Assembly (NCBI GenBank): GCA_963771885.1
Contig: CAVYVF010000023.1
Span: 928,001 to 992,000 of the forward strand
Length of the DNA: 64,000 nt
Source: Candidatus Bathyarchaeota archaeon
GTDB taxonomy: Archaea > Thermoproteota > Bathyarchaeia > TCS64
Direction: 5' to 3'
Shown: positions 35,128-63,708 of the stretch, in pieces
Numbering within the stretch: position 1 is the first letter of the stretch
How the letters are laid out: every line of letters starts with the position of its first letter
Program-made: the position numbers and the translations under genes
Notes under the pieces: generated by a model
Database searches by the model: none
Told to the model about the DNA's origin: nothing
What the model saw: only the letters and a program-made list of their open reading frames with translations

Positions 35128-35889
35128 ATGGCATACAATCCCACCGAGCTAATGGCGTGTGCCGCCTCTCGCGTGCTGGAAGACGGTAAGTCCGTTTTCG
35201 TCGGCACCGGATTACCAATCATCGTCTCGATGCTCGCGCAGAGGACGCATGCCCCCAACTTGCTCGTCGTATTCGAAGCTGGCGGTGTAGGGCCAAAGAT
35301 ACCTGCCATCCCCATCAGCGTCGGGGACAGCCGCACATTCCACAAGGCTATCATGGCTGCGAGCATGGACTATGTAATGAGCTGCGCCCAGCTCGGCCAC
35401 ATAGACTTCGGCTTCCTCGGCGCCGCCCAGATAGACGCCTACGGCAACCTAAACACCACCTGTATAGGACAGCACGAGTCGCCGAAGACTCGCCTCCCCG
35501 GTAGCGGCGGCGCGAACGACCTCGGCAGTCTTTGCTGGCGTAACATCGTCCTCATGCGTCAGGATACTCGCAAGTTCGTCGAGAAGCTCGACTACCTCAC
35601 CACACCCGGTTACCTGAATGGCCCCGGCGCACGGGAGAAGGTGGGGCTTCCACGCAACACGGGCCCTTACCGGGTCATAACCCAACTCGGCGTCATGGGA
35701 TTCGATCCCGAATCGAAGCGGATGACGCTCGTCTCCACCCATCCCAGCATATCGGTGAAGGATGTGGTAGACAACACGGGGTTCAAGCTCATAATCCCCG
35801 ATAACGTTCCAACGACGGACATGCCGACTGGCGAGGAGCTACGCCTCCTACGCGAGGAGCTCGATCCCAACAAGATTGTGATCGGCTAG
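35128..35889 (+). CDS. CoA-transferase subunit B
   Basis: FVGTGLP, catalytic Glu in FEAGG, GAAQID.YGNLN, RLPGSGGAND. Confidence 0.92.
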   Translation: MAYNPTELMACAASRVLEDGKSVFVGTGLPIIVSMLAQRTHAPNLLVVFEAGGVGPKIPAIPISVGDSRTFHKAIMAASMDYVMSCAQLGHIDFGFLGAAQIDAYGNLNTTCIGQHESPKTRLPGSGGANDLGSLCWRNIVLMRQDTRKFVEKLDYLTTPGYLNGPGAREKVGLPRNTGPYRVITQLGVMGFDPESKRMTLVSTHPSISVKDVVDNTGFKLIIPDNVPTTDMPTGEELRLLREELDPNKIVIG

Positions 35890-36833
35890 AGGCGAGGCTT
35901 CACTTTCTCATTGAAGAGCCTTATTCCCTCTATTTCTTCGCCGAAATGGAATCTGAGGATGAAGTGGTCGACGCCAATCGCCTTATATTCCTCGATGCGG
36001 GCTGCGACCTGTTCGGTTGTACCGACGAGGTTCGGGGGTTGCTTAGCCAGGTACTTCGCGTATGGGGTGTTTTTGTTCGCCTCGCGTTTCTTAAGAATGG
36101 CACTCAGAGCATCCTCGTCCTCCGCCATTGTGATCATGAGTCCGGCGGACTTACGTATGCTTGTGTAGTTTCTGCCGCGTACATCGCAGTAGCGCCTCAG
36201 CTCCTCGAGCTTTGTCTCGAACTTCGGTGGCGGTATGGTCCAGGCAAAGTTGACGGCGTCTGCGTGGCGCGCTGCTATTTTCAGGGTGAAGCTGCCTGTG
36301 CCTCCGATCCATATGGGTGGGTGGGGCTTCTGTAGGGGCTTCGGGGCGCAGACCGCGTCATGGACGCCGTAGAACCTTCCCTCGTATGTGGCCTTCTCAT
36401 CCGTCCACATCCTCTTCGCGATCTCGAGGGCGTCGCCGAGCTGCCTTATCCTTGTGTCGGGTGAGGGGAAGGGGTAACCGTAGGCCGCGTACTCGACGTC
36501 CTTCCATCCCGCGCCAAGGCCGTAGTTGAAGCGGCCGCCGCTGATGTTGTCGACTGTGGCCGCCATCTTCGCCGCGAGGGCGGGGTTCCTGTAGCTTTGG
36601 GAGGCGACCATTGCGCCGAGGCGCAGCCGCCTCGTATCCCGGGCGAGGGCTGCAAGGGTCATCCAGCACTCGAGGCAAGGCGTATCCACCGACTCCGGCG
36701 TCATGAAGAAGTGATCCGAGACCCAGAGCGACTCGAAGCCGAGGCGCTCCGCCTCCGCTGCGATCCCCCTGATTCCTTCGTAGCTGAAGCCGTACTGGGG
36801 CTCGATCTGTAGCCCGAAGTCGAGGCGAGCCAT
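35886..36833 (-). CDS. LLM-class F420-dependent oxidoreductase
   Basis: LWVSDH, YRNPALAAKMAATVD..SGGR, GLGAGW, PKPLQKPHPPIWIGG. Confidence 0.9.
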   Translation of the reverse strand: MARLDFGLQIEPQYGFSYEGIRGIAAEAERLGFESLWVSDHFFMTPESVDTPCLECWMTLAALARDTRRLRLGAMVASQSYRNPALAAKMAATVDNISGGRFNYGLGAGWKDVEYAAYGYPFPSPDTRIRQLGDALEIAKRMWTDEKATYEGRFYGVHDAVCAPKPLQKPHPPIWIGGTGSFTLKIAARHADAVNFAWTIPPPKFETKLEELRRYCDVRGRNYTSIRKSAGLMITMAEDEDALSAILKKREANKNTPYAKYLAKQPPNLVGTTEQVAARIEEYKAIGVDHFILRFHFGEEIEGIRLFNEKVKPRL

Positions 36834-41320: not shown

Positions 41321-42195
41321 TCAGGCGCTTCTGTCTATCTTGACGCCGCCACGTGGACCTATTGTTGCTTTCGCGTGGCGGAGCGCCCAGCACCCGATCA
41401 CAATGCCGACTGGTAAGCTGGCTGGGTGCCTCGCAGCCATCTCTATGTGTATATCGAGCGCCGTCGGTCCCTCACCGAGCCCCATAGCACCGATACCGAG
41501 CTCGTTTATCTTCTCCAGTAACTCCTCCTCAATCGCGGCTATCTTGGGGTTTGGGTTCCTGACCTTGAAGGGCTTTAAGAGCGCCTTCTTTGCTAGGACC
41601 ATGCACATGTCCTCGCTGGCGCCGATTCCGACGCCGACGAAGTAGGGTGGGCAGCCTTGCGAGCCCGCGGCGGCGACCGCCTCAATGACGAACTGCTTCA
41701 CTCCCTTCAGCCCGAGCCCCGGCTTGAGCATCTTGTGGTTAGCAACGTTGCTACTACCGCCACCCTTGGGCATGGCGATGATCTCCAGATTCGTTGCCGG
41801 GGATCAAGCTCCCAGTAGATGATTGGGACGTGTGCGCCTGTGTTATCGTTCGTGTTGCCCTTGAGCATATCCACCGCATTTGGGCGTATGGGTATCTCGT
41901 CCGTCGCGCGCCTTGTCGCCTTTACGAGTATCTCATTCAGCTCCGACCTAAGGGGGAACTTATCTCCAACCTTAACCATGAAGGCGACGACGCCTGTGTC
42001 CTGGCACATGGGCCAGGAGTTCTCCCGAGCGATGGAGATATTGTCAAGTATACTCTTTAGCTGGGATTTGCCCGTGGCGCCTTTCGTTTTCTTCGCCAGC
42101 TTGTCCATCTCCCTGACGTACTCGACAGGGAGCTCGGTGGCCGAGATCCTTAGGAGCTCGACCGCCGTATCTTCGACTATTTTGCTGAGTGTCAT
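41321..42195 (-). CDS. Class I fumarate hydratase/tartrate dehydratase alpha subunit (frameshifted near 41790)
   Basis: PMCQDTG, RPN, PKGGGSSN, CPP..VGVGIG, GIGAMGLG, RHPASLPV, CWA.R. Confidence 0.92.
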
Positions 42196-42196
42196 C

Positions 42197-42793
42197 TTAC
42201 TTCATCTCCGCGACTATCCTATCCCTGTTGGCATTGACTTTCTTTCCGACGTCAGCAGTAAGGTTGGCACCATGAGTATCTATGGTGACGATGAGTGGGC
42301 CGAAGTCCTGCGTATCGTAGACCCAGAGGCACTCGGGCATGCCGAGCTCCTCAAGCCAGTAGACGTCCTTGACCTTTTTTATACCCGCGGCGCCGAGGAG
42401 GGCGGCCCCGCCGGTGAAACTTGTGTAGACGCAGCCATACTTCTGGCACGCCTTGGCGGTGCGGTCGCCCATCCCTCCCTTACCTATGATGACTGAAGGG
42501 CGGAACGCCTCGATGAAATTATCCTCAAATATCTCCATGCGGGTGCTCGTCGTAGGGCCGGCGGCTACTACCTCCCAACCCTTTCCCTTCTTCCTCATGA
42601 TTGGCCCGCAGTGGAAGACGCCGATGCCCTTGAAGTCGACTGGTAGCTTCTCACCTTTCTCGTGGAGCTCAAGCGCCTTATGGTGCGCCTCGTCACGCGC
42701 CGTGATGACCGTGCCGGTTAGGTAGACGACGTCCCCAGCCTTCAGCTTCCTTACATCCGCTTCGGGCACGGGCGTCTTCAGGTGGTACTCCAT
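42197..42793 (-). CDS. Class I fumarate hydratase/tartrate dehydratase beta subunit
   Basis: TARDEAH, HCGP, AGPTTS.RM, IGKGGM, LGMPE, FGPL. Confidence 0.93.
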   Translation of the reverse strand: MEYHLKTPVPEADVRKLKAGDVVYLTGTVITARDEAHHKALELHEKGEKLPVDFKGIGVFHCGPIMRKKGKGWEVVAAGPTTSTRMEIFEDNFIEAFRPSVIIGKGGMGDRTAKACQKYGCVYTSFTGGAALLGAAGIKKVKDVYWLEELGMPECLWVYDTQDFGPLIVTIDTHGANLTADVGKKVNANRDRIVAEMK

Positions 42794-42899
42794 AACCTTT
42801 CACTCCCACTATCTCAACCCTTCACAATTTAAAACCTGAGACTCCCGTGATTGACTCTTTTTTTACAGGTTCTGTGAATCCGAGTCGATTTCTAGAAAA

Positions 42900-42914
42900 A
42901 GTATAATATATACT
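42900..42914. promoter_or_regulatory. Palindrome in the divergent promoter between fumarase and hdrC
   Basis: AGTATA-ata-TATACT overlapping a TATA-like element upstream of the ATG at 42932. Confidence 0.35.
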
Positions 42915-42931
42915 GCGACTAGGATTGTGAG

Positions 42932-43351
42932 ATGTCTTCGGAGAAACAGGGGCTCGTCCTCCACCCCTCACCCGCAAACAAGGTTTTCCGTGATCGGGTG
43001 AAGGAGTTGAGTGGCGAGAAGGTAGAGCTGTGCTTCCAATGCGGGGCGTGCAGCTCAGGTTGCCCCATGACGCAGGAGATGGACTACCTACCTAGCAAGA
43101 TCATCAGAATGGTCCAGCTTGGCCTCGAGGAGGCGCTGGACTCAAAGACCATCTGGGTGTGTACAACTTGTTTCAACTGCGAGGTCAGGTGCCCTAGGGG
43201 CATCGACATCGCCAACGTCATGGAGGCGCTCCGCCAACTCGTGCTCAGGAAGAAGTACGACAGGGTGGCGCTGGATCAGCTAAGCGACGAGCAGCTGAGG
43301 GAGCTGCCCCAGGTCGCGATAATCAGCAGTTTGAGGAAGCTCACGGCGTGA
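42932..43351 (+). CDS. hdrC: Heterodisulfide reductase subunit C-like (2x[4Fe-4S])
   Basis: CFQCGACSSGCP and WVCTTCFNCEVRCP. Confidence 0.9.
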   Translation: MSSEKQGLVLHPSPANKVFRDRVKELSGEKVELCFQCGACSSGCPMTQEMDYLPSKIIRMVQLGLEEALDSKTIWVCTTCFNCEVRCPRGIDIANVMEALRQLVLRKKYDRVALDQLSDEQLRELPQVAIISSLRKLTA

Positions 43352-43355
43352 TCCT

Positions 43356-44250
43356 ATGAACATCGCATATTATCCAGGTTGTACGTTGAAGACGACGGCG
43401 AAGGAGTTCGATATAAGCACCAAGGCGTCGGCCAAGGCGCTAGGTATCAACCTCGTCGAGCTCCCACGCTGGAACTGCTGCGGAACCGTTCACGCCCTCG
43501 CGAAGGACGATGTGATGCACCACCTCGCCCCTCTCCGCAACCTGCTCCGGGTTGAAGAAGCGCAACAGAGCGGAATCGTGGACGAAAAGAAGGTCGTCGC
43601 CCTATGCGCAATGTGCTACAACACGCTCAAGCGGAGCAATCAAGCATTCAACTCCGATTCCGACAAGGCGAGCAAGGTCAAGGAGAATATGAACAACGAG
43701 GCGAGCGTCTACAGTGGGCAGGTCGAGGTCGAGCATCTGCTCGAGACGCTCCGTACGCATGGCTGGGACAAGGTCGAGGCGCGTGTCTCGAAGCCCCTGA
43801 AGGGGCTCAAGGTAGCGCCTTACTACGGGTGCCTCCTGCTCCGCCCGCGCGGAATCGGCGTGGACAACGCTGATAACCCCCGCATCTTTGAGGACCTTTT
43901 AAATGCACTTGGGGCGGAGGTCATCGACTTCGGCTACAAGCAGAAGTGCTGCGGCAGCTACCACACCGTCCACATGGTGGACGTAGTAGCAGATCTGAGC
44001 AACAAGATATTGACTCAGGCTCAGGCTGCAGGCGCTGACGTAGTCGCGACGGCTTGCCCCCTTTGCGAGTACAACCTAGGGAACAGGCAAATTGCAGGTC
44101 GCGAAGAAGTATCCCAAGTTCAACGGTATCCCAATCGTTTATTTTACCCAGCTGATGGCGCTTGCCTTCGGGCTCGGTGAGGATGATACGGCTCTCGGGA
44201 TGAACAAACCCGACCCGAGGCCAGTGCTCAGGGAGAAGGGGCTGATCTAG
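43356..44250 (+). CDS. hdrB: Heterodisulfide reductase subunit B-like (frameshifted near 44095)
   Basis: Two CCG domains: YYPGC..CCG..CAMC and YYGC..CCG..CPLC; tail YFTQLMALA in a shifted frame. Confidence 0.9.
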
Positions 44251-44251
44251 A

Positions 44252-44942
44252 ATGACTGAGAACGGCAACAACATGGTCACCATCTACGTGATGGGTAAGA
44301 AGCAGAGCGTACCCGCCGACCTGACAATAATGAAGGCGATGGAGTACGTCGGACACCAGTTCAGGAGGGGCGCAGGCTGCAGGGGAGGATACTGCGGCGC
44401 CTGCGCCACCGTCTACAGAAAGAAGGGCAGCTACAAGCTACAGGGAGCCCTAGCCTGCCAGAAGATAGTAGAAGATGGCATGATCATAGCCCAGATACCC
44501 TTCAGTCCCCAGGAGAAGAAGACCTACAACGTCAACGAGCTCAAGGCAGAGGCAAACACCTTCCTCGAGCACTACCCCGAGATAGCCCGATGCCTTGCCT
44601 GCAACACTTGTACCAAGGCCTGCCCACAGGACATAATGGTCATGGACTACGTCCAGGCAGCCCTACGCGGCGACGTTGCCCAGGCAGCGAAGATCAGCTT
44701 CGACTGCCTAGGCTGCGGGCTCTGCGCTATGAGGTGCCCAGCCGAGATAGTGCCCTACAACGTGGGTCAGCTCGCGCGGCGCCTAGAGTCCAAGTACGTC
44801 GAGGGGCCGACGGAGCACGTCCTCAAGAGGTGTGATGAGATCAGCATCGGGCAAGTACGACGCCGAAATTGAGGAACTGAAGAAGATGGACAAGCCGACT
44901 CTTCAGAAGAAGTACAATACGAGGGAGATGAAGATCAAATGA
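44252..44942 (+). CDS. SdhB/FrdB-like iron-sulfur protein ([2Fe-2S] + 2x[4Fe-4S]), frameshifted near 44848
   Basis: GCRGGYCGAC...LACQ, CLACNTCTKACP, CLGCGLCAMRCP; ATGA overlap with the next gene. Confidence 0.85.
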
Positions 44943-46593
44943 GCGACTACAAGAGCGGCTACCCCGAGTACATGCAGGAGAGCCTCAGACTCGTCGCCGA
45001 GACGCGGGCGGGGAGGTTCGGCAAGGACTTCATCCCTATGACGGCGGAGCAGAGGCAGCAGATACTTGAAAAGTTCCACCCCGACTGGAAGCCGGCAGGT
45101 GAAGAGAACGCTCGCCATCGGGCCTAGCAAGGGCATGATAATCCCCCACGAGGTCGCCGACATCCTCGAGGCCCACCCGATGGTGAAGCCAAAGGAGATC
45201 GACCTCAGCAAGGTCGACTACGACGTTGACGTGTTGATCATCGGCGCAGGCGGCGCTGGCATGAGCGCCGGTATCCTCGCAAATGAAAACGGAATCCCCG
45301 CCGATAGGATACTCATGGTTCAGAAGCTGCGCCTTGGCGATGCCAACTCGAAGATGGCGCAGGGAGGCATACAGGCAGCGGATAAGCCGGATGACAGCCC
45401 ACCCATCCACTACCTCGATATCATCGGCGGTGGACACTATGCGAACAAGCCCGAGCTCGTCGAGGCAATGGTAAGGGACGCGCCCGATGTCATCAAGTGG
45501 CACGAGAACCTTGGCGTAATGTACGACAAGCTCGCCGACGGCACCATGATGGAGATCGCTGGTGGAGGCACGAGTAGGCGTAGAATGCACAGCTGCAAGG
45601 ACTACACTGGTTTGGAGCTTACACGCGTCGTGCTTGATGAGTTCATAAACAAGGGCATTGGATATGTCGAGTTCACATGCGCCGTCGACCTGCTAATGGA
45701 CGATAAGGACCAGGTCGCGGGTGCAGTGCTCTACGACCTCGACTCGAACGAGTACAAGATCGCGAGAGCGAAGTCAACTATTCTCGCAACGGGTGGCTTC
45801 GGAAGGCTCCACATTCAGGGATTCGCGACTACGAACCACTATGGTGCGACTGGCGATGGAATAGTGATGGCTTACCGCACGGGCGCGGTCCTCAGGGACC
45901 TCGACTCGACGCAGTACCACCCGACAGGTGCTGCCTACCCCGAGCAGATAGTGGGTCAGCTCGCCACCGAAAAGCTCAGGGGGCGCGGAGCACAACCCGT
46001 CAATAAGAACGGGGAGCTCTTCGTCTACCACCTCGAGCCACGCGACATAGAGTCCTCCAGCTACATCAGGGAGTGCTACGAGAGGGAGATGGGCATAACC
46101 ACCCCGACTGGGATGCGCGCCGTCTGGCTCGACACACCCCAGATCGAGGCCGTCAACGGACCTGGCACGATAGAGCGCGAGTTCGCCGCAATGTTCCGTA
46201 CTCTTCAAGAAATTCGGCATCGACATCCGCAAGGAGCCGATGGCAGTCTTCCCGACCCTCCACTACCAGAACGGGGGCGTCGAGATAAATGCGAAGACCG
46301 AGACAAGTGTCCCCGGACTCTTCTGCGCCGGCGAGGTCTGCGGAGGCGTACACGGCAAGAACCGCCTAATGGGAAACAGCCAGCTTGACATCTACGTTTT
46401 CGGCCGCAGGGCGGGCAAGTACGCTGCCGAGAGGGCGAAGACCGCGACAGTCGGTAAACTGACTCTCGCTCACCTCGACCGCTACGACAGGTGGCTAGAC
46501 GAGGCGGGCATCAAGACGGACCGGAAGGCTCCGCTCCTGCTCCCCGAGTATAGGGGACAGAAGACACTCGAGCATAAGCTGAAGCTGCTGTGA
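44939..46593 (+). CDS. SdhA/FrdA/TfrA-like FAD flavoprotein (frameshifts near 45090 and 46200)
   Basis: IGAGGAG, SKMAQGG, ATGG.G, QYHPTG, EKLRGRG, PRD, HYQNGG, HGKNRLMGNS. Confidence 0.88.
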
Positions 46594-46598
46594 TTGAC

Positions 46599-48958
46599 AT
46601 GACTGACACGCCTAGGATCGGCGTCTGGCTCTGCGAATGCGGAGGCAACATCGGCGACGTCGTCGAGACAGACACGGTAGTCGAGACGTTGAAGCCCGAA
46701 GTCGCCTTCGTCAAGAAGGAGAGGTACCTCTGCAGCAAGCCTAGCGTCGACGCAATCAAGGAAGCTGTCGAGAAACAGAAGCTCGACCGGGTAGTACTCG
46801 CCTGCTGCACCCCAAAGATGCACAGAGAGACGTTCCTCAGCAACCTCGCGGAGAAGGGGGTCAACCCCGCCTATCTCGAGATGGTGAACGTCAGGGAGCA
46901 ATGCAGCTGGGTCCACAAGGAGGACCACGAAGGCGCAACACTGAAGACGATGGACCTGATACGCGGTGCGATTGCACGCGCCAAAGAGTCAGTCGCCCTT
47001 GAGTCGAAGAGGATGAAGGTCATCCCCGAGGCACTCGTCATCGGCGGAGGCGTCGCGGGCATCACGACAAGCCTTCGCCTCAGCGAGTTCGGGATGAAAG
47101 TCCATCTCGTCGAGAAGCGTCCAAGCATCGGGGGGCACATGATTCAGTACCCAAGGTCTTCCCGACCCTCGACTGCAGCCAGTGCATACTAACCCCGAAG
47201 ATGGCTTCGGTGAGCCAGAGCAGGAACATCGATCTCCTCACATACGCTGAGGTCGAGGATGTCTCCGGTGTCCCCGGCGACTTTAAGGCAAAGGTCCGGC
47301 TCAATCCGCGCGGCGTTGATGTTTCGAAGTGTATCGGTTGTGGCGCATGTAGCCGGGTCTGCCCGACGAAGGTGCCCGCAGAGCACGATCAGGGTCTCGG
47401 TACACGCAAGGCAGCATACATACCGTTCCCGCAGAGCGTCCCAAGCGTCTACACGATCGACTTCGAGCACTGCATCCGCTGCGGCGCATGCGCGAAGGTC
47501 TGTCCGCGCCAGTGTATCGACCTCGACGACCCCGGCTCCTCGAAGGAGCTGAAGGTCGGTGCGATCGTGATGGCGACAGGCTTCGAGCTATTCGACCTCT
47601 CGGGCTTAGTCCAGTACGGCTACGGGAAGTACCCGAACGTGGTGACGAGCCTCGAGATGGAGAGGATACTCGACGTCAACGGGCCGACGGGCAGCCAGCT
47701 CATTGTGCCGAAGACTGGGAGACCAGTGAAGACCGTGACCTTCGTCCTCTGCGCGGGTAGCCGAGATACGGAGGTCGGTAGGGCTCACTGCAGCCGTGTC
47801 TGTTGCCTCTACAGCATGAAGCAGGCTCAGCTCCTCAGGGACAGGGGCGTCGAGGTCTGGATCCACTACATCGACATCAGGTCGCCGGGGAGGCGATACG
47901 AGGAGTTCTATAGGACGACGCAGGAGAAAGGCGCCAACTTCGTGAAGGGAAAGGTGACGGAGATCGTCCCCGACGGCGAGCAGGTGCTCGTGCGCAGCGA
48001 GGACATGATGCTCAACAAGATGATCGAGTACCAGAGCGACCTCGTCGTGCTAGCGCCACCAATCGTGACGACGCCTGAGACGCTAAAGCTCGCGGAGATG
48101 CTGCGTGTTCCTGTTGACGAGGATCAGTTCGTCCTCGAGAGGCACCCAAAGCTCGACCCGATGTCGACGAAGCGAGACGGAATCTTCGCGGCGGGCACAG
48201 TTGTCGGCCCGAAGGACATCCAGTCAACGACGGCAGAGGCTGAAGGCGCCGCAATGAAGGTGGTCAACTTCCTCCACGTCGACAGGGTCATCGAGCCCAA
48301 CAAGGCTTGGCTCGCCCACCCCGAGCTGTGCGATGGCTGTGGTAAATGCGTTGAGCCGTGTCCCGAGTCGGCGATCACGATGGCCGACGGTAAGCCGGTC
48401 GTGAACGAGATTATGTGCACCGGCTGCGGAGCATGCATTCCCTCTTGTCCCAAGAACGCGCTTGACCAGCAAGGGCTTAGCGAGGCCCAGATCAAGGCCC
48501 AGATCAGAGGCGCACTCGAGGGCTCTAAGGCTGAGCTGAAGATACTCGCCTTCGTGGAGAAGGAGGTCGCGTACACGGCGGTGGACCTCGCGGGGCTCGC
48601 ACGCCTACCTTACCCGAGCAGCATCAGGATAATCCCGATGCCCTCACTGGCGAGGCTCAAGCTGGAGCATCTCCTCTACGCGTTCGCCTACGGTGCGGAC
48701 GGTGTGATGCTGCTGGAGGCCCCCGCGCATGAGGGTCCATATGGCCACGCCCACGTCCTCGCTGAGGAGAGGGCGGACGAGTACAGGTGGGCCCTCGAGG
48801 ACCACGGCGTCGACAGCAGCAGGATGTGGTTCAGCAGGGTCTACGTACCTGACTGGAGGAAGCTGGAGAGGGTCTTCAAGACCTTCAATGACATCATCGA
48901 CGGTGAGGGACCGATCGATGAAGGCGCGAGGAAGAAGCTCCTCGAGGAACTCTCCTAG
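46599..48958 (+). CDS. hdrA: HdrA fused to a C-terminal MvhD-like domain (frameshifted near 47152)
   Basis: CECGGNI, CCTP..H, NVREQCSWVH, IGGGVAG, FPTLDC..C, SLEMER, CAGSR, CSRVCC..SMKQA, two ferredoxin inserts. Confidence 0.92.
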
Positions 48959-49044: not shown

Positions 49045-49518
49045 TTAATAAGTAGCCTTAATCTTCTCGACAAACGTCTTCGTAGTCTCCTTAAATGCCC
49101 CGGATTTAGCGTCCCCCGTCGTTATCTCTTTTGTAGCGACGGGCGCCTTGCCCACGAGTCCCTCCATCACCTTGAAGGTCTCGCCCGCCTTGCTGCCCAT
49201 CGTGCAGAAGAAGGCGACGCGCGGGAATTTGCTCTTCATTGCGGCTAGGTAGCTGCGGACTGGGCTTGAGACGTTCCACGCCCAGATAGGGGTACCGACG
49301 ATGATGATGTCGTATGTCGACGGGTCCGCCTTCGGCGGGTTGATGGGCACGATGGCTCCATCGGATCCCTCCTTGCCTGACCTTATCCAGCCGAGCGGGC
49401 CGCCACGTCCCTTTGGCTCTGTGATCTCCTCGATGTCTGCCCCAAGCTGTGCTTTCAGCTCCTCGGCGACCTTACGGGTGGCCCCGTCGCGTGAGTAGTA
49501 GACGATGAGTATCTTCAT
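49045..49518 (-). CDS. Flavodoxin
   Basis: YYSRDGAT..VA, VGTPIW, FFCTMG. Confidence 0.9.
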   Translation of the reverse strand: MKILIVYYSRDGATRKVAEELKAQLGADIEEITEPKGRGGPLGWIRSGKEGSDGAIVPINPPKADPSTYDIIIVGTPIWAWNVSSPVRSYLAAMKSKFPRVAFFCTMGSKAGETFKVMEGLVGKAPVATKEITTGDAKSGAFKETTKTFVEKIKATY

Positions 49519-49557
49519 GGAGCTGAGTCCCTGGATCGATGATAAAAACGTGCCCGT

Positions 49558-50806
49558 TTACTTGCAGAAGCGCAGAATAGTGCGTGCGAGTGTCTTTGTT
49601 GCGGTGACTAGTTCACTTATCGGCACGTGCTCGTCTGGTCTGTGGCAGAGCCGGACGTCGCCAGGGCCGAAGAGGACGCTCGGGGTCTTGCCCACTCTCA
49701 CGATGTGGCGCATGTCCGAGCCGTAAGTCATTCCCTCGTAGATGGGCTCTGACCTAGTCGTGTCCCGATAGGCGACTGCTACCGTCTCAACTATCGGGTC
49801 GTTAGTTGGCGTTCTGACGGGGGTGAATTGGCCTCCCCGCCACTCTACAGTTGGGGGATGCTCGCGCAGCCACGCATCCGCAGCGACGGCGTTAGCGACG
49901 GCATTCTCAAATGCGATGTGGGCAGAAGTCACGTTCTCATCCACCCCTATTCCGTATCGACCCTCTAGGATGAGCTCCTCTGGGACCGATGAGGGCCAGT
50001 TCCCGCATCTGACGACGCCGAGATTGAGGGGAATTGGGAGCCTGTACCTGGAGTAGAGTGGGTCCTTGACGGCAGCGTTTCGTGTCTTTTCAAGGTTCAT
50101 GAGAGCGTTGTAGATTGGCATGAACTTCTCGAGAGCGCTTACACCCTCTTCCCTGACACAGGCGTGGGCGGATTGTCCCTTGATAGTGATCTTGAAGACG
50201 TGGCTGCCCGCCTGGGCGGGGGCGACCTTGAGTTCTGTGGGCTCGACGACGACCGCGCCGTCCGCCTTATAACCCTTCAGCGCCGTCGCGAGGGCGCCTA
50301 TGCCCCCGTCCTCCTCCCCGACGACACTTTCGACGAAGACATTTCCCTTGAAGTCGACGCCCGAGTCAATTATCGCCTTAACCGCGTTTATGGCGCAGCT
50401 TAGGCCGCCCTTCATGTCGACGGAGCCGCGTCCGTAGAGCATGCCGTTTTTGACGGTGCCCCTCCAGGGCGGAAAGCTCCAGTTCGTTTCGTCCCCAGGG
50501 GAAACGACGTCAATATGGCCGTTGAGTATTAGGCTCCTCCCCTCCCCTGCACAGAGGCATCCGACGACGCCGAGGCCCTCCTTCCTATCCACCCCCATGC
50601 TGAAGTCGGGGTGCTTCCTCACCTCGGGTATGTCTATCACCCAAACGTCTGTCTCGAGGCCGATACCCTTCATTATTTTTGCCACATGCCTCTGCGCCTC
50701 TGACTCGTCCCCAGTCACGCTGGGGATCTCGAATGAGCTCGCTCGTGGTCTTCACGATGGCGTCCTTGTCGACTTTTTTCAGAACCTTTCTCTCGATGTC
50801 CGTCAT
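49558..50806 (-). CDS. ArgE/DapE family M20 deacylase (frameshifted near 50730)
   Basis: LNGHIDVV, GRGSVDMKGG, VGEEDGG, EPT, YGSD, FGPG...H.PDE. Confidence 0.9.
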
Positions 50807-50874
50807 ATCAGCCCTCGCTAGCCTGTTTAGGACAGATTGGGCGTGTTTCGGATATAAGGTGACGAGGTCTAAGG

Positions 50875-52975
50875 CTACGCACGTGCGGGTTTGACCTGCA
50901 CGTTGATGGAGTGTGTGCGGGACGCCATGCTGGGGCGCGTCGGCTCGGTTGATGTCAGTACATTCACGGCGCCGACCCTGTCTACACCCGCCGCGTCGAG
51001 CTCTGGCCACACCCCCTCCTGCAGGCAGACAACACCACGCATTATGTCCACAGTTAAATAGACTCGGACAGTCGCCTCCCCCTCAGGGCTCGTGACGAGC
51101 GCAACGTCGCTGTTCGTCAGTTCCCTCAATACCGCGTCTTCGGGGTGAATCCAAAGTCTGTGAGGCTCCCTCTCCCTGAACCAGGGAATGTTGGAGTTCT
51201 GCGAGTGGACTCTGTACCGGGACTTTGGCGAGACGAGCCTCAGCGGGTATCCTTGGATGGTCTGCAGGAACCTCGCCTCTGGTATGGGCGTTCCCCCCGC
51301 TGCCGCGTAGGGCTCTGAGAGCAGTTGAACCTTCCCTGAAGGGGTGTTAAGTGGATTCTTGGCGGGGTCCGCAATGAAGTCGCTGAAGGCAACTCTCGGA
51401 TTCGTGGCTCCGAAGTATATTCCTCTCCTCCTGAACTCGTCGAAGTCGCCAATCTCCGACTCCGCCGCGAAGTGGCGGAGCCACGCCTCCTCATCCCTCC
51501 CCTCCGAGAATAGCGTCGAGGAACTCGAGCCTCTCAGCGAGGCCGCAGAATATGTCGTAGTCGTTCCGCGACTCCCCGACTGGCTCAGCCACCCTATTCG
51601 AAAAGAGCATGTGTCTGCCGCTGCTCGGCGTGACGATGTCGTTACGTTCAAGGAATGTGGTCGCCGGGAGGACGACGTCGCAGTACCTTGCTGTGGGTGT
51701 AAGGAAACGGTCGTGGCACACCGAGAACTCGACGCTCTCGTAGGCGCGTATCACCTTCTTCGTGTCTGAGCTTTGCGCCACGTAGTCGCCGCCGACGTTG
51801 TAGATCGCCTTGACGTCTGTGGGGAATCCGCCCCTCCTCCCCTCCAGCACGACGTCTGCCCAGAGGTAGACGGGTATCGACGCCTTGGCCGGGTTGGGTG
51901 GGACGCCAATCTGAGGCATCTTTGGGAAGGGCAGGGTGCCGAAGGCGAGTGCCCCCGATGAGCCGCCGGGGACCCCGAGGTTTCCAGTCGCCGTCTGCAG
52001 GGCGATCGCCATTCTGATTGCGTCTTCGCCGCCGATGGTCCTCTGTATCGAGAGACCGGGTATGAGCGCCGTCGGGTGAGTGGCTCCGTATCTCTCGGCG
52101 AGCCCAATGATTACACTTGCAGGGACCCCGCAGACTTCCTCCGCCCACCCCGGCGTCTTAGGCACGCCGTCGCTGCGCCCCATGATGTATGCCTCAAGCT
52201 CGCCAAAGCCATGGCTGTACTTCTCGACGAAGTCCCTGTTGACGAGCCCGCGGTTTATGAGAGTGTGCAGGATCGCCGCCATCATAGCGGAGTCCGTGCC
52301 GGGGTAGATGGGTATCCACTCGGTAGCGAGATTCTTCACTGTGAGTGTCCTGCGCGGGTCGATCGCCACAATATCGACGCCACGCCTCTTCGCCTCCCTG
52401 ACGTGCGCCTCCAGCCCGCACTCCATCTTCACGTCGGAGACGTTTGCCCCCCAGAGGATAATCATCTTCGAGTCGCGGATGTTCGCAGCATCCATCCCCG
52501 CCGCGTATGTTCCGAGGACGTACGGCGTGACGAACAGTGCAGCACCTATACTGTAGCTTGAGTGTCTCTCCGTATAGCCGCCGAGCATGGCGAGGAACCT
52601 CTTTGTCAGGCGGTGTGTGTTGTGAAGCGAGCCCCTGTTTGAACCGGAGCCGCCTAGGTGGATTATCGACTGAGCGCCGTACTTTCTCTTGGTCTCGGTG
52701 AGTCTCTGCGCCACGAGGTCGAGCGCCTCATCCCAGTTCGCCTCCCTGAACTCGCCGCTCCCCCGAGGGCCGACGCGAATGAGAGGTTTCTTGAGTCTGT
52801 CGGGGGCGTAAAGGACCCTGTGCATCTGGAACCCCTTAACACATCCCGTCATGTAAGGCGCACCGAGTGGGTTGTCAATGATCCGGGCTATAACGCCGTC
52901 TTCGACGATTGCGAGTAGCGGGCAGCCGCCCCCACAGTCGAGGTTGCACGAGACTGGTAGGTGAACGTGGCTCAA
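50875..52975 (-). CDS. DMSO reductase family molybdopterin oxidoreductase, catalytic subunit (frameshifted near 51500)
   Basis: CNLDCGGGC...C FS0 motif, PDRLKKPL, ILWGAN, PGTD.A, DVVLPATT..ER, TPSGK, RVHSQ, IHPEDA. Confidence 0.9.
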
Positions 52976-53019
52976 GGGAATCAGTCTGGATAATGTCCTG
53001 CTGTCTATAATGATTGTCT

Positions 53020-53484
53020 TCAAGCGAGGCGCTTCGCCATATGAACCAGCGTGGAACCGCGGAAGGGCTCGCGCTTAGTCTCTTCGTAACCGAACCATGT
53101 GTAGAGGGCGACGTTTTCCTCGAAGAGGGAGTTCGTGTATAGGCGTATGCTCATGAAGCCCCGATTGCGTGCTTCGTCCTCCGCGAGCCTGAGGAGGAGG
53201 AGTCCGAACCCCCGCCCCTGATAGTCGGGGTGGACGGCTACGCTCCAGATGAGTGTCTGCCCATCCTCATGCTTCAGGACGAGTACTGCTGCGGGTTTAC
53301 CCTCGAAGGAGAGGATGTGAATTGGGTGCAAAGTGATCATATCAACGTAATTGACGGTCATGGGCTCGGGCTTGCGCCCAATGAGGGATATCCACTTTGA
53401 ATAGGCAGCGTCTGTAATAGCGGACACGATGGCTGAGTCTTCCCGATTGGCCAACCTTATGGTTACGCCGTCTCCTCTCGACAT
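53020..53484 (-). CDS. GNAT family N-acetyltransferase
   Basis: VAVHPDYQGRGFG acetyl-CoA motif, LYTN, N.ALY..FGY. Confidence 0.9.
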   Translation of the reverse strand: MSRGDGVTIRLANREDSAIVSAITDAAYSKWISLIGRKPEPMTVNYVDMITLHPIHILSFEGKPAAVLVLKHEDGQTLIWSVAVHPDYQGRGFGLLLLRLAEDEARNRGFMSIRLYTNSLFEENVALYTWFGYEETKREPFRGSTLVHMAKRLA

Positions 53485-53679: not shown

Positions 53680-55020
53680 ATGCCCGTCACAAAGGAAGAG
53701 CTACTCAAGGAAGCCCAGAAGTGGAGTAAGATCGCGCCACCCTACCACGCCTTCTACCACGGCAAGGTCGAGGTGATGCCAAAGTGCGCCATACGCACAC
53801 TTCAGGACTTCAGCATCTGGTACACCCCCGGCGTCGCCCAGGTCTGCAAGGACATTGAGAAGGACAAGGAACTCGCCTACGAGGGGACGAGCAAGTGGAA
53901 CTACGTCGGCGTCGTATCCGATGGGACTCGCGTCCTCGGCCTCGGAGACATCGGCGGCCAGGCCGGCATGCCCGTCATGGAGGGCAAGGCCCTCATCTTC
54001 AAGTACCTGGGAGGCGTCGACGCCTTCCCCATCTGCCTCGCCACGAAGGACCCCGAGGAGATCATACAGGCGGTCAAGTGGATCGAGCCCACCTTCGGAG
54101 GAATCAACCTCGAAGACTTCTCAAGCCCCAAGTGCTTCTACATACTCGAGAAACTCCGTAAAGAGATGCCCATCCCCGTCTGGCATGACGACCAGCAGGG
54201 AACCGCTGCCGTCATACTCGCGGGCACATATAATGCCCTCAAGGTGGCAGGTAAAAAGCTCAACACGGCAAAGATCGCCATAGTCGGTGTCGGCGCCGCG
54301 AACACACGCACCTACTACGTCCTCAAGTCGGCGGGAGTCAACCCCAAGAACATCCTCATGACAGACTCTACGGGAATCCTCAGCGCCACTCGCAAGGACT
54401 TGGAGGGCAGCTACAAGTGGCAGATCGCTAAGGAGACAAACCCCGACGGCGTCGAGGGTGGCATCAAGGAGGCGCTCGAGGGCGCCGATATGTGTATCGC
54501 CGCCTCAAAGCCGGGGCCGGGCATCATCACGAAGGACGACGTCAGGGGCATGGCGAGCAACTCGATAATCTTCGCATGCGCCAACCCTATCCCCGAGATA
54601 TGGCCCTGGGAGGCTAAGGAGGCAGGGGCGAAAGTCGTCGCCACAGGGCGCAGCGACTTCCCTAACCAAGTCAACAACAGTCTCGTCTTCCCCGCCATCT
54701 TCCGTGGAGCGCTCGACGTGCGCGCTAAGACGATCACAGATGAGATGTGCATTGCATCCGCGAAGGCGCTGGCCAAGTACGCCGAGGATAAGGGACTTAA
54801 CGAGAGCTACATTCTCCCCGGCATGGATGAGTGGGAGATCTACCCACTGCAGGCCACAGAGGTCGCGATGAAGTGCATGGAGCAGGGACTAGCGAGGAAG
54901 AAGATGACGCGGCAGGAGATACACGACGGTGCAGCCGCCATAATTGAGAGGACGCAGAAGATCGTGAAGCTCCTCATGGCGCAGGGATTCATTGCCTCGC
55001 CGCCCCCGGAGCCTAAATAG
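53680..55020 (+). CDS. NAD(P)-dependent malic enzyme
   Basis: YTPGVA, DGTRVLGLGDIG, MPVMEGK, GGINLED, HDDQQGTA, ANPIPEI, ATGRSDFPNQVNN. Confidence 0.95.
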   Translation: MPVTKEELLKEAQKWSKIAPPYHAFYHGKVEVMPKCAIRTLQDFSIWYTPGVAQVCKDIEKDKELAYEGTSKWNYVGVVSDGTRVLGLGDIGGQAGMPVMEGKALIFKYLGGVDAFPICLATKDPEEIIQAVKWIEPTFGGINLEDFSSPKCFYILEKLRKEMPIPVWHDDQQGTAAVILAGTYNALKVAGKKLNTAKIAIVGVGAANTRTYYVLKSAGVNPKNILMTDSTGILSATRKDLEGSYKWQIAKETNPDGVEGGIKEALEGADMCIAASKPGPGIITKDDVRGMASNSIIFACANPIPEIWPWEAKEAGAKVVATGRSDFPNQVNNSLVFPAIFRGALDVRAKTITDEMCIASAKALAKYAEDKGLNESYILPGMDEWEIYPLQATEVAMKCMEQGLARKKMTRQEIHDGAAAIIERTQKIVKLLMAQGFIASPPPEPK

Positions 55021-55152: not shown

Positions 55153-55632
55153 TTGACAAGGCAGAGTCTACACGAAACAGTCAGAAGGATGAACGCCGAG
55201 GTATGCGATCAATGCGGCAAGTGCCCTTCGGCGTGTCCCGTCACAGCCCACATCGAGGGCTTCAATCCCCGCCAGATAATCGCAAAGGTCAGCCTTGGCA
55301 GGGAGGACGATCTCATGGACTCCGGCGTTATTTGGACATGCACTAGCTGCCTCAAGTGCCGCGAGAGGTGCCCCGAGGAGATCAGTCCATACGACGTCAT
55401 CCTCGAACTCCGCCGCGAGGCCATTGCCGAGGGGAGACAGCACCCCGCGAGCTATGACGAGGCGGAGAGGGCAGTCACGGAGACAGGCGCCGTCCAGCAG
55501 CCTCAGCCCGCGAGGACACGCAACAGGGATAGAAAGGATCGCGAAGCCCTAGGTCTACCGCCCGCGCAGAAGCCGAAAGACCAGGCAAAGTTTACACAAG
55601 CCATCAAGGAACTCAAGGAGGCCGAGAAATGA
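55153..55632 (+). CDS. hdrC: HdrC-like 2x[4Fe-4S] protein
   Basis: CDQCGKCPSACP and WTCTSCLKCRERCP. Confidence 0.88.
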   Translation: MTRQSLHETVRRMNAEVCDQCGKCPSACPVTAHIEGFNPRQIIAKVSLGREDDLMDSGVIWTCTSCLKCRERCPEEISPYDVILELRREAIAEGRQHPASYDEAERAVTETGAVQQPQPARTRNRDRKDREALGLPPAQKPKDQAKFTQAIKELKEAEK

Positions 55633-56512
55633 AGGTCGCATTCTTCCCCGGCTGCACCGCGCAGGCGGACCAGATAGGCTACGAGGCAAGCGTCAGGGTC
55701 ATTATGCCTAAGCTCGGCGTAGAGCTCGCCGAGATGGAAGGCGCCGCCTGCTGTGGTTACCCTCCATACAGCAGTGTCAGCGAGGCTGCGTGGTTCTACT
55801 CCAGCGCACGCGATATGGCGATCGCTGAGGGCATGGGGCTACCCCTATTCACCCTCTGCAACGGTTGCCATCTCAGCTTCACCGAGACTAAGCACGCACT
55901 AGCCAAAGACGCCCCCCTCAAAGTCGAAGATCAACGAAAAGCTCGCACGCGAGGGCTTCCACTATGAAGGCAAAGCTGAGCTTCTCCACATCTTCGAGCT
56001 CCTCCACGACAGACTTGGGAAGGAGAAGATCACCGCGGCGGTCACCAAGCCATTGACAGGATTCAGGTTTGGCGCACACCCCGGTTGTCACAGCATACGC
56101 CCCAGCCGCCTCGGCCGCCCAGATGACGCCGAGAACCCCGTCAAGCTCGACGACCTCATCAACTGGATCGGCGCACAGGCCGTCGACTATCCCGGGAAGA
56201 TCGACTGCTGCGGCTCAAGCCTCGCGTCGGCAAGCGGTAAGACCGTCATGGAGATCGCGGGGGATAAACTCAAAACCGTCAAAGGCACTCGGCCTCGACG
56301 GCCTCGTCACGACCTGCCCCTTCTGCTTCAAAGTCTACGACAACAGGCAGAGGGCAATCGCGTCAACGATCGGAGACAGGACCCTAGAGGTCCCAGTCTT
56401 CTACTACACCCAGCTCCTCGGCCTCGCCATGGGGCTCAAACAGGAGCAGCTGGGCCTCGAACTCAACCAGAGCCCCATCGACCCGGTGCTCGCACGAATA
56501 GGAGGAGCTTAA
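55629..56512 (+). CDS. hdrB: HdrB-like protein (frameshifts near 55925 and 56285)
   Basis: FFPGC..CCG..CNGC, HPGCH..RP, DCCG, TCPFC, YYTQLLGLAMG. Confidence 0.88.
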
Positions 56513-56513
56513 G

Positions 56514-57821
56514 TTGAAGCCAGTTCTAGTCATAGGTGGCGGAATCGCCGGAATACAGGCGTCGCTCGACCTCGCCGACAGGGGGACGAAGGTCCACCTC
56601 GTGGAGCGCACCCCGAGCATCGGCGGCGTCATGGCGCAACTCGACAAGACCTTCCCAACGATGGACTGCAGCATCTGCATCCTCGCCCCAAAGATGATTG
56701 AGTGTTACAGGCACCCGAACATCACCATCCATACTCAGAGTGAGGTCATAGGGTTGGAGGGGTCAGTCGGCGACTTTAAGATCAAGGTCCTAGAGCACCC
56801 ACGCAGCGTAGACTCCTCGAAGTGCACGGGCTGCGGACTATGCTCCGAGAAGTGTCCGGTGAAGAAGCCGAGCGTATTCCAGGCGGGCCTCGGGCAGCGC
56901 AAAGCCATCTACCTCGCCTTCCCGCAGGCAGTCCCACTTATAGCAACAATCGACCGCGAAGCATGCCTCTGGTTCACCAAGGGTATCTGCAAGACCTGCG
57001 AGAAGGTCTGCCCCGCAAAGGCCGTGGACTACGAGCAGAAGGAGAACATCGTCGAGCTGAACGTCTCCAGCGTCATCGCCGCGACCGGCTTCGAGCAGTA
57101 CAATCCAAAGGACATCGGCGAGTATGGCTACGGGCGATACAAGAACGTGCTCACAGCGCTTGAGTTCGAGCGCCTCGTCTGCGCCTCAGGCCCAACCGGC
57201 GGCGTCCTCAATCGCCCCAGTGACGGAAAGGTGAGCCACAACATCGCATTCATCCAGTGCGTAGGTAGCAGGACGCAGACGACTGGTTACCCCTACTGCA
57301 GTGCAAGCTGCTGCATGTACGCTACTAAGGAGGCGGTACTCATCAAGGAGCATGAGCCCAGCAGCCACGTAACCATATTCTATATGGACCTCCGCACATT
57401 CGGCAAAGGATTCCAGGGTTTCGTCGACCGCGCCCAGAGCCACTGGGGAGTCAACTACATCAGGGGACGCCCAGGCGAGATCAGGGAGGACCCAATCACA
57501 AAGGACCTCACCATCCTCTACGAGAACACCGAGGTAGGCAAGGTCGAGCAGATGAAGGTCGACCTCGTCGTCCTTTGCACTGCCGCGGTGCCCCACAGGG
57601 ACAATAGAAAGCTCGGAAGCGTCCTCGGCGTAAAGCTCGACGAGTTCGGATTCTTCGAGGACAAGGACATGCTCACCGCTCCAGTGGAGTCGAGCAAGCC
57701 TGGGATCTACGTCTGCGGCAGCTGCCACGGACCCCGGGACATACCCGAGTCCGTCGCCGAGGCTAGCGCCACCGCGGCCAAGGCTGCGGAGGACGCCGTG
57801 CGCGCGGAGGTGAAGCAGTGA
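56514..57821 (+). CDS. hdrA: HdrA-like FAD/FeS subunit lacking the N-terminal domain (module 1)
   Basis: IGGGIAG, DKTFPTMDCSIC, ferredoxin insert, LEFER, QCVGSR, CSASCCMYATKEA. Confidence 0.9.
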   Translation: MKPVLVIGGGIAGIQASLDLADRGTKVHLVERTPSIGGVMAQLDKTFPTMDCSICILAPKMIECYRHPNITIHTQSEVIGLEGSVGDFKIKVLEHPRSVDSSKCTGCGLCSEKCPVKKPSVFQAGLGQRKAIYLAFPQAVPLIATIDREACLWFTKGICKTCEKVCPAKAVDYEQKENIVELNVSSVIAATGFEQYNPKDIGEYGYGRYKNVLTALEFERLVCASGPTGGVLNRPSDGKVSHNIAFIQCVGSRTQTTGYPYCSASCCMYATKEAVLIKEHEPSSHVTIFYMDLRTFGKGFQGFVDRAQSHWGVNYIRGRPGEIREDPITKDLTILYENTEVGKVEQMKVDLVVLCTAAVPHRDNRKLGSVLGVKLDEFGFFEDKDMLTAPVESSKPGIYVCGSCHGPRDIPESVAEASATAAKAAEDAVRAEVKQ

Positions 57822-59489: not shown

Positions 59490-59491
59490 AC

Positions 59492-60261: not shown

Positions 60262-60273
60262 GGCTGATCAATC

Positions 60274-63200: not shown

Positions 63201-63278
63201 GGGGCGATCACGGTTGGTCACTTCACCGACCAGGAGATACTTAGCCAGGTCAAGGCAGCACTGGAGGCGAGACGATGA
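60274..63278 (+). CDS. hdrA: Large tandem-module HdrA (module 1 + module 2 fused), several frameshifts
   Basis: Two FAD Rossmann motifs, DKTFPTNDCAMC, CSGVCC, internal CWCGINI and [17 protein letters not shown]-terminal ferredoxin. Confidence 0.88.
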
Positions 63279-63707: not shown

Positions 63708-63708
63708 C

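Follow-up and report, generated by a model that had tools for sequence, protein, structure and literature searches.

A fumarase-linked Hdr operon with a soluble fumarate-reductase-type flavoprotein in Bathyarchaeia, possibly encoding a direct-wired ferredoxin:fumarate oxidoreductase

A 64-kb stretch of the genome of a Candidatus Bathyarchaeota archaeon, a non-methanogenic sediment organism (GenBank assembly GCA_963771885.1, contig CAVYVF010000023.1, positions 928,001 to 992,000; hereafter the window) contains an operon in which heterodisulfide reductase (Hdr) genes flank a fumarate-reductase-type gene pair, divergently from the two genes of a fumarase. Position numbers are those of the window, the source genome is labelled G000, and loci of relatives carry labels of the form L###. 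All seven genes, namely fumA, fumB, hdrC, hdrB, the gene of an iron-sulfur (FeS) subunit, the flavoprotein gene and hdrA::mvhD, were found at the positions below in the list of open reading frames and in NCBIfam and Pfam scans.

41321..42195, minus strand: fumA, Fe-S class I fumarate hydratase alpha; 290 amino acids (aa) in L011, two inserted bases in the window
42197..42793, minus strand: fumB, fumarate hydratase beta; 198 aa; TIGR00723 over cut-off
42794..42931, no strand: divergent intergenic region, 138 bp; TATA-like runs, putative promoter
42932..43351, plus strand: hdrC-like gene; 139 aa, two [4Fe-4S] motifs; best match TIGR03290, below cut-off
43356..44250, plus strand: hdrB-like CCG gene; 297 aa; ten non-cubane cluster cysteines kept; Leu160 for His154; one inserted base at about 44096
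44252..44942, plus strand: FrdB-like FeS gene; 229 aa; [2Fe-2S] and two [4Fe-4S] motifs; no CCG domain (Pfam)
44939..46593, plus strand: fumarate-reductase-type flavoprotein gene; 550 aa; non-covalent flavin adenine dinucleotide (FAD; Asn136); N-terminal extension of about 85 aa; no C-terminal helical domain
46590..48958, plus strand: hdrA with fused cysteine-free MvhD-like domain; 789 aa; PF02662, E 2e-24
53680..55020, plus strand: malic enzyme; 446 aa; PF00390 and PF03949

In the window, frameshifts break five of the seven genes. Alignment by blastn to L011, a Bathyarchaeota contig with 95.7% nucleotide identity, located seven single-base indels in coding DNA, at about 41788 and 41799 (fumA), 44096 (hdrB), 44843 (FeS gene), 45101 and 46199 (flavoprotein gene) and 47150 (hdrA). 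All seven are specific to the window and absent from L011. Short-read contigs of other public runs also lack them (six in run X1, that at 46199 in X15), and the X1 contig covering 45830-46313, which spans site 46199, itself shows one gap. This means that the frameshifts are assembly errors and that the genes are intact in nature, and we rejected a pseudogene reading on the same grounds. The intact L011 proteins, of the lengths listed above, were used for analysis.

In L011, fumA and fumB are 1 bp apart, the divergent gap measures 137 bp, hdrC and hdrB are separated by 4 bp and hdrB and the FeS gene by 1 bp. The FeS gene overlaps the flavoprotein gene in an ATGA and the latter overlaps hdrA in a GTGA (both -4 bp). 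These gaps and overlaps bear out the tightly coupled operon described in an earlier note on this DNA. The divergent layout with fumAB is likewise kept in most close relatives. The 138-bp gap carries AT-rich runs on both strands that are TATA-like by the archaeal promoter consensus, and these may mark the promoter that the note had fumAB and the hdr operon share; a sigma-70 promoter/terminator scan found nothing above chance. RNA-library contigs (X15 and X16; 90-99% identity, without a silent control) span much of the operon in relatives. No subunit contains a transmembrane-like segment, as the highest 19-residue Kyte-Doolittle values are 0.62-1.70, against 2.42 for E. coli FrdC and 2.37 for SdhC, so the hydropathy of the operon proteins agrees with the reported lack of a membrane anchor subunit.

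The malic enzyme, which the note had placed about 5 kb downstream, begins about 4.7 kb after hdrA. Between them (49045-53484) lie a flavodoxin gene, an M20 deacylase gene that is largely missing from L011, a gene for a DMSO-reductase-family molybdoenzyme (frameshifted in the window, 697 aa in L011) and a small gene. As the malic enzyme usually follows hdrA directly in relatives, the gap in the window reflects inserted genes. The hydratase itself is most simply a fumarase. The L011 FumA scores 310 bits with the fumarate hydratase family NF004885 and passes its cut-off of 276, and a tartrate dehydratase identity was rejected with 226 bits for NF006084, below the cut-off of 365. FumB has fumarate hydratase NF004708 as its best equivalog, at 237 bits and below the cut-off of 269.

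The closest loci are titled Bathyarchaeota or Bathyarchaeia, and the homologue search returned only close relatives among the 120 matches listed. A flavoprotein match (E <= 1e-100) was present in 84 of 301 genomes of the class Bathyarchaeia and in 58 of 70 within the family of the source genome. Among 33 close-relative loci, the FeS gene occurred in 32, hdrA in 31, hdrB in 30, hdrC in 29, fumA or fumB in 25 and the malic enzyme in 23. Most of the missing genes reflect contig ends, and L036 and L100 lack fumAB despite a full flank. The proposed linkage to fumarase thus holds in close relatives, usually together with the malic enzyme. Two contigs titled Patescibacteria and Krumholzibacteriaceae (L018 and L034) carry a Bathyarchaeia-type operon in the same order, with flavoproteins 73-78% identical; these contigs are probably misbinned.

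Loci from other Bathyarchaeia families contained Hdr genes in 13/13 cases and fumarase in 2/13, and those from other archaea and non-Bacillota bacteria contained Hdr genes in 15/16 and fumarase in 0/16. Family members in Thiomargarita are 52-55% identical. In Bacillota (the phylum of an Anaerobacillus genome), a flavoprotein match at E <= 1e-110 was found in 43/401 genomes, or about 11%. We sampled 16 of 46 Bacillota matches, each taken with some 13 kb of upstream and 3 kb of downstream sequence, and found Hdr genes in 10 and fumarase in 6; L133 was not counted as Hdr-linked, its Hdr match being only 21%. The six others carry the FeS-flavoprotein pair with no Hdr gene in the fetched stretch, five of them with fumAB and three with other Fe-S or cytochrome genes. 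This indicates that the FeS-flavoprotein pair is a plug-in module. In L119:6091-14445, L123:3281-11814 and L130:2427-5748, the place of Hdr beside the pair is taken by multiheme cytochromes, FMN-binding Fe-S proteins or a cytochrome-b-Fe-S protein, and the pair may there belong to an undescribed membrane-linked fumarate reductase. A further arrangement recurs in L121, L122, L124, L125, L126 and L132: hdrC-hdrB-hdrA-long hdrA-(mvhD), a protein of about 370-470 aa, the FeS and flavoprotein genes and kor-like genes, with a malic enzyme upstream in most.

Several neighbours recur, counted among kin that are not independent of each other. MvhGA genes adjoin in L039, L052, L091 and L092, 2-oxoacid:ferredoxin oxidoreductase genes in L038, L048, L084, L090, L091, L096, L121 and L122, SucC in L118, L120 and L123, malate dehydrogenase (MDH) in L133 and, in one Bacillota locus (L127), aspartase lies directly upstream. 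Cytochromes or other Fe-S proteins are neighbours in L119, L123 and L130. Flx genes were confirmed in no locus, and several neighbours in L041, L045, L047, L119, L122 and L123 matched no family. Fumarate-linked enzymes recur beside the family in both domains, in different arrangements.

The flavoprotein keeps the catalytic residues of fumarate reductase. H327, T343, E344, R347, R368, H441 and R475 align with E. coli FrdA H232, T244, E245, R248, R287, H355 and R390, which we take to be its active-site residues, in 14/14 family rows. Among 34 sequences, six of the seven are invariant and T343 is at least 90% conserved. Asn136 stands where FrdA has the covalent-FAD His44, and a non-covalent FAD favours the direction of reduction. 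The AlphaFold model (predicted local distance difference test, pLDDT, 87.7) has E. coli FrdA as its closest fold, with a template modelling (TM) score of 0.68. The alignment stops before the C-terminal helical domain, and PF00890 is the only Pfam family matched. No NCBIfam family reaches its cut-off; the best is TfrA (NF004900) with 315 bits against 718, and the L-aspartate oxidase profile TIGR00551 gives 265 bits against 453.

To place the flavoprotein, a first tree of 47 rows, made as a quick search only, was repeated as a careful LG+G4 tree of 36 rows, from which the long-branch rows L078 and L081 and several redundant rows were left out. L056 and L061 pass the TfrA cut-off. Twenty family members form one clade (100/100), apart from verified TfrA (100/100), SdhA/FrdA (99/99) and NadB (100/99). 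The stem leading to this clade is long (1.0 substitutions per site). The deep order among the clades is weakly supported (82/75), and we claim no sister group or donor lineage. Three identities were rejected. Membership of TfrA fails on the profile score and the separate clade, and membership of SdhA/FrdA on the tree, the absent covalent-FAD His and the absent C-terminal helical domain. The earlier note had considered that the protein might group with L-aspartate oxidase; it lies outside the NadB clade, lacks the NadB Glu discussed below and falls short of TIGR00551, and nadA was not found in G000. The note's soluble fumarate-reductase-type flavoprotein linked to Hdr is thus upheld, as a clade of its own that is routinely mislabelled as SdhA or TfrA.

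From these residues, the substrate is very probably fumarate. It is quite improbable, though arguable, that the enzyme instead reduces or oxidises another unsaturated dicarboxylate or L-aspartate and that the hydratase acts on a related acid. The long stem, the absence of an NCBIfam family at cut-off and the FumB score would fit such a substrate, as would Gly208, which occupies the column of FrdA F116; FrdA, SdhA and TfrA have Phe there and NadB has Glu, presumably with a functional role. The evidence that separates the protein from NadB speaks against L-aspartate, the FumA scores speak for a fumarase, and three fumarate-linked enzymes recur nearby (class I fumarase, aspartase, and malic enzyme or MDH). 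Two stand-alone TfrA-like flavoproteins of the same contig, L001:1030-2613 (G000:C23, about 49 kb) and L002:1483-3021 (about 265 kb), score 368 bits with TfrA, below cut-off, and form a long branch of their own. They keep R287, H355 and R390 and lack H232, T244 and E245, so these two flavoproteins must act on another substrate.

The electron path towards this flavoprotein depends on the role of HdrB. The position of His154 in the structure 5ODC is Leu160 in the operon HdrB, and a His at this position was found in 0/67 HdrB copies linked to the flavoprotein, compared with 8/8 other HdrB-like proteins of Bathyarchaeia; four further unlinked rows have Tyr or Leu. The five other HdrB-like proteins of G000 all keep the equivalent His. 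His154 has been proposed to transfer protons in disulfide reduction (bioRxiv 10.64898/2026.08.25.746951). The ten cluster cysteines are kept in 65/67 linked copies, and in the other two the first is missing only because the N-terminus was called short. Non-cubane clusters of this kind serve as plain relays in EMO (bioRxiv 10.64898/2026.08.18.745454). The FeS subunit has a [2Fe-2S] motif (C43, C48, C51, C69) and two [4Fe-4S] motifs (C114-C124 and C152-C162); its 12 cysteines are invariant in 30/30 aligned homologues, and a CCG domain occurs in 0/30.

We predicted the complex of HdrC, HdrB and the FeS subunit with ESMFold2 (without HdrA or the flavoprotein). The FeS subunit obtained a partner score of 0.74, against 0.00 for the best control, the runs agreed in at least 94% of contacts and partner pLDDT was at least 78. 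This mark was reached by 116/157 solved pairs and 2/215 mismatched pairs, in a calibration from which the present job differs. In the model, the C114-C117 cluster loop of the FeS subunit contacts HdrB residues 8-14, 38-43 and 54-61 and HdrC residues 114-138 (the C-terminal helices). The contacted part of HdrB contains C9/C41, in the N-terminal CCG domain, and in 5ODR it is C42/C81 of that domain that ligate the distal cluster (bioRxiv 10.64898/2026.08.18.745454). The FeS subunit is thus predicted to dock on the distal-cluster side of HdrB, which would give the geometry of a continuous HdrC -> HB1 -> HB2 -> FrdB wire. For the complex with Hdr subunits proposed in the earlier note, this three-subunit model predicts the contact of the FeS subunit with HdrB and HdrC. 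Altogether, we consider a direct wire from HdrB to FrdB probable.

A different role for HdrB follows if the system is a split thiol:fumarate reductase, in which HdrB and HdrC oxidise a diffusible thiol (on a lipoyl carrier or other), electrons pass to FrdAB, and HdrA or another Hdr re-reduces the disulfide. The retained cysteines fit this, as do the keepers of His among the other HdrB-like proteins of the genome, the TfrB architecture formed by the FeS subunit and the CCG protein together (NF004898, TfrB, matches both) and a GcvH-family gene shortly after a neighbouring Hdr-Mvh cluster (G000:C23:997581-997928). However, His154 is lost specifically in the linked HdrB, and one HdrB bound at once to HdrC and FrdB, as predicted, needs no diffusible carrier. 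Coenzyme M (CoM) genes were also not found: comA, comD and mcrA were not detected in G000 (comD is over cut-off in 3/41 family genomes), and cysteate synthase occurred in 0/41 family genomes including G000, in a survey that left out coenzyme B (CoB) genes. With the FeS subunit free of a CCG domain and HdrB free of His154, the CoM/CoB thiol route suggested in the earlier note thus loses its footing, and we regard a thiol shuttle of any kind as unlikely, slightly less so than a change of substrate.

The CCG protein could also be read as the monotopic, quinone-linked anchor of a type E complex II (similar to SdhABE or MfrABE), possibly working towards succinate oxidation. Its best NCBIfam match is indeed MFR_anch_SdhE (166 bits) ahead of HdrB (155 bits), and the FeS subunit has two [4Fe-4S] motifs. 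Yet both scores are far below their cut-offs (500 and 345), mqnA/D occurred in 0/41 family genomes and menA was over cut-off in one, which is not G000. HdrC and HdrA are presumably co-transcribed with the pair, and the flavoprotein stands outside the SdhA/FrdA clade with no covalent-FAD His. Of all the explanations weighed here we give this one the least credence, and very little.

At the other end of the chain, K411 and E358 of HdrA correspond to K409 and E356 of 5ODC (mapped on chain A), and these residues, the C196/C199 pair and all Fe-S cluster motifs are invariant in 21/21 aligned proteins. The hdrA::mvhD fusion is present as had been described, but its "MvhD" is free of cysteine in the window and has one at most in the 28/28 close-relative loci that reach the domain, whereas canonical MvhD domains in the same data have 5-6. 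Electrons reach the bifurcating flavin through the [2Fe-2S] cluster of MvhD (PMC6019823, PMC13580544). As the ligands of this cluster are lost, the canonical bifurcation input is dead, and the usual way in for electrons from a hydrogenase or NADH module is closed in the operon HdrA. Nor do the genes of the operon include a donor module (Mvh, Flx or Fdh). The canonical HdrA-MvhD bifurcation that the earlier note had considered is therefore not sustained, and bifurcation is possible only by a non-canonical entry. Such domains are not confined to this operon. The two Methanobacteriaceae HdrA proteins closest to NF041891, which score 1205 and 1182 bits (below the cut-off of 1300), carry the same ligand-less MvhD fusion in both cases examined; NCBI names this family "ferredoxin:CoB-CoM heterodisulfide reductase". 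Unlike the operon HdrA, which keeps E358, they have Ala at the E356 position. An MvhD-like search of cluster representatives gave 33 stretches with at most one Cys among 137 scoreable, of 150 listed (without names or context), which shows that MvhD domains that appear ligand-poor occur elsewhere.

Taken together, the products of the five plus-strand genes would assemble in the cytoplasm as HdrA(MvhD*)-HdrC-HdrB-FrdB-FrdA, a single complex reducing fumarate to succinate with neither a quinone nor a free thiol. Our best reading is a thiol-free, direct-wired ferredoxin:fumarate oxidoreductase, to which we give a probability of roughly 0.45. In the simplest mode, reduced ferredoxin would enter at the ferredoxin-type clusters of HdrA, and electrons would pass from the HdrA flavin through HA4 to HdrC and then to the proximal and the distal non-cubane cluster of HdrB, which would act as a relay and not as a disulfide reductase. 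From there they would flow through the [4Fe-4S], [4Fe-4S] and [2Fe-2S] clusters of FrdB to the FrdA flavin and fumarate. The fumarate would come from malate through the divergently encoded fumarase, with the malic enzyme connecting malate and pyruvate, so that the complex would be an electron sink for a fermenter, serving a pyruvate-malate-fumarate-succinate branch or malate dismutation. Within this scheme the reductive direction seems plausible, and ferredoxin takes about half of what probability then remains for the donor.

Several observations weigh against this reading. Electron flow from ferredoxin at -520 mV (PMC6019823) to fumarate at +33 mV (PMC5861303), if uncoupled, would waste much energy. 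The retention of E358/K411 and C196/C199, set against the Ala at E356 in the Methanobacteriaceae proteins, argues that bifurcation chemistry is still selected. DsrK works without His154 (bioRxiv 10.64898/2026.08.25.746951), and with its ten cysteines HdrB could still handle disulfides. The docking score may reflect memorisation by the prediction model, as the FeS dicluster domain resembles HdrC and HdrBC complexes have been solved. The Gly at the F116 column leaves room for a related dicarboxylate as substrate, and fumarase is absent from the loci of other archaea and non-Bacillota bacteria. Finally, G000 (2.46 Mb) is 92% complete and 6.7% contaminated, so that absences from it mean "not found".

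The rival that comes closest keeps the direct wiring and lets the complex bifurcate, with fumarate as high-potential and ferredoxin as low-potential acceptor and mid-potential electrons entering by a non-canonical route, either from F420H2 at the HdrA flavin or from a partner HdrA (with intact MvhD and an MvhAG hydrogenase) across a mixed HdrA dimer. The invariant flavin site and cluster motifs of HdrA support it, although ferredoxin-to-flavin transfer would make use of K409/E356 and the arm clusters as well, and their retention therefore does not discriminate. On its own, an MvhD-fused HdrA is able to use F420H2 although it shows no recognisable site for it (PMC12054007). Against this donor, no F420 site can be recognised in the operon HdrA. 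The host appears to use F420: cofE is present in 39/41 family genomes, G000 included, and a gene for an F420-dependent LLM-class oxidoreductase lies at 35886-36833 in the window (TIGR03560 over cut-off). For the mixed dimer, the MvhD arm of solved complexes serves the flavin of the other protomer (primed FAD, Cys202'/Cys205'; PMC13580544), canonical hdrA/mvhD genes stand downstream of the cluster in L013, L014, L087 and the window, and the MvhGA genes of sister clusters make a donor module look ancestral. Against it stands the operon itself, which has no donor gene. On balance we hold bifurcation to be possible but doubtful. A shade less likely still is its specific form as an HdrABC-derived bifurcating enzyme without disulfide chemistry, in which the HdrB clusters wire to the fumarate reductase and the flavin is reduced by F420H2 or through the mixed dimer. 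If bifurcation is true, fumarate reduction would yield reduced ferredoxin in an archaeon that has neither quinone nor CoM, and fumarate would be a new high-potential acceptor for HdrA.

The idea of an Hdr-linked bifurcating fumarate reductase is not new, as it has already been proposed for bacterial clusters. For the "novel fumarate reductase" of Pseudoclostridium thermosuccinogenes, succinate formation was proposed to be coupled to ferredoxin via Hdr (PMC7282089). Its succinate operon likewise unites fumarate hydratase, HdrABC and a two-gene fumarate reductase, but FlxABCD supplies electrons from NADH there, whereas the Bathyarchaeia operon has no donor module and a fused, ligand-less MvhD. 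The P. thermosuccinogenes protein is putatively, and likely, a member of the same flavoprotein clade; the described fumarase-flx-hdr-frd order was seen in 0/16 of our Bacillota loci. A korABCD-tfrAB-flxABCD-hdrABC cluster in tubeworm symbionts and Thioflavicoccus mobilis, for which a direct complex was hypothesised (bioRxiv 10.1101/363564), also has an anchor-free pair among hdr genes, and kor neighbours occur at some loci of our family. That cluster serves the reductive tricarboxylic acid cycle with Flx and Kor, in contrast to the fumarase and malic enzyme found here, and its "TfrA" label does not fit the clade of the operon flavoprotein. In the excerpts seen, PMC8671834 concerns an ordinary SdhABCD cluster, and 10.1101/2024.09.26.615249 gives only STRING links of HdrA with succinate dehydrogenase in some bacteria.

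Among characterised enzymes, methanogen TfrAB is similarly soluble, with non-covalent FAD and an FeS subunit plus CCG domain, and TfrA is the best-scoring profile. The operon differs in that its CCG protein, an HdrB without His154, has a gene of its own, HdrC and HdrA join the set, the flavoprotein forms a separate clade and CoM genes were not found. MvhAGD-HdrABC (5ODC, 8RVU) and the MvhD-fused type Ia HdrA2 share the HdrA flavin site, all HdrA clusters, HdrC and the ten-cysteine HdrB; the operon lacks the MvhD [2Fe-2S] cluster, the hydrogenase and the HdrB His154 and adds a fumarate reductase pair. Its MvhD fusion resembles that of the ligand-less HdrA family NF041891. Complex II (E. coli FrdABCD/SdhCDAB, SdhABE, MfrABE) shares the flavoprotein fold and dicarboxylate-site residues, but the operon enzyme has no transmembrane anchor, covalent FAD or C-terminal helical domain, has an extra N-terminal extension, and comes with no menaquinone genes found.

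The operon is thus real and conserved, a variant of a proposed kind of enzyme of which we found no purified form in the literature searched. That search, judged mostly from listings and thin in subscription journals, gave no evident description of a Bathyarchaeia case or a purified enzyme and no match for the phrase "bifurcating fumarate reductase". New here are a specific predicted docking site and two losses, that of the MvhD cluster throughout the lineage and that of the HdrB His154 throughout the family; together these make the direct-wire model sharply testable. Non-methanogenic archaea and bacteria hold many Hdr complexes in which the replacement for CoM-S-S-CoB is mostly unknown, and this operon offers a compact candidate answer, with five genes, a defined acceptor (fumarate) and the predictions that FrdB sits at the distal cluster of HdrB, that no thiol is needed and that MvhD has no cluster. 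As the family is common in its own lineage and in the sampled Bacillota, it may represent a route to succinate that is widespread in sediments and digesters but has gone unrecognised.

The source genome also encodes SucC-like and KorA-like proteins, NiFe hydrogenase large subunits, three GcvH-family proteins and other Hdr clusters. A tblastn search with one MDH query found no match in it, a result that does not prove absence. Another large and heavily frameshifted Hdr cluster spans 55153-64000 of the window and continues into G000:C23:992000-999080, with hdrC, hdrB, several hdrA pieces, two canonical mvhD, hdrC, hdrB and mvhG- and mvhA-like genes. It is followed at a short distance by a hydrogenase-protease-like gene, the GcvH-family gene mentioned above (PF01597) and a gene that presumably encodes a lipoate-protein ligase; the thiol carrier of this second cluster could be a lipoyl protein. 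At G000:C2:119994-130123, three 2-oxoacid oxidoreductase-like genes and mvhG/mvhA-like genes accompany two tandem hdrA::mvhD fusions (774 and 804 aa), which keep their cysteines and have no adjoining hdrBC, the first with a degenerate N-terminus. At G000:C7:75591-79674, an HdrB that keeps His154 directly follows Nuo-like genes, presumably for NuoE, NuoF and a NuoG N-terminal Fe-S protein, and this locus may possibly encode an NADH-fed disulfide reductase without HdrA.

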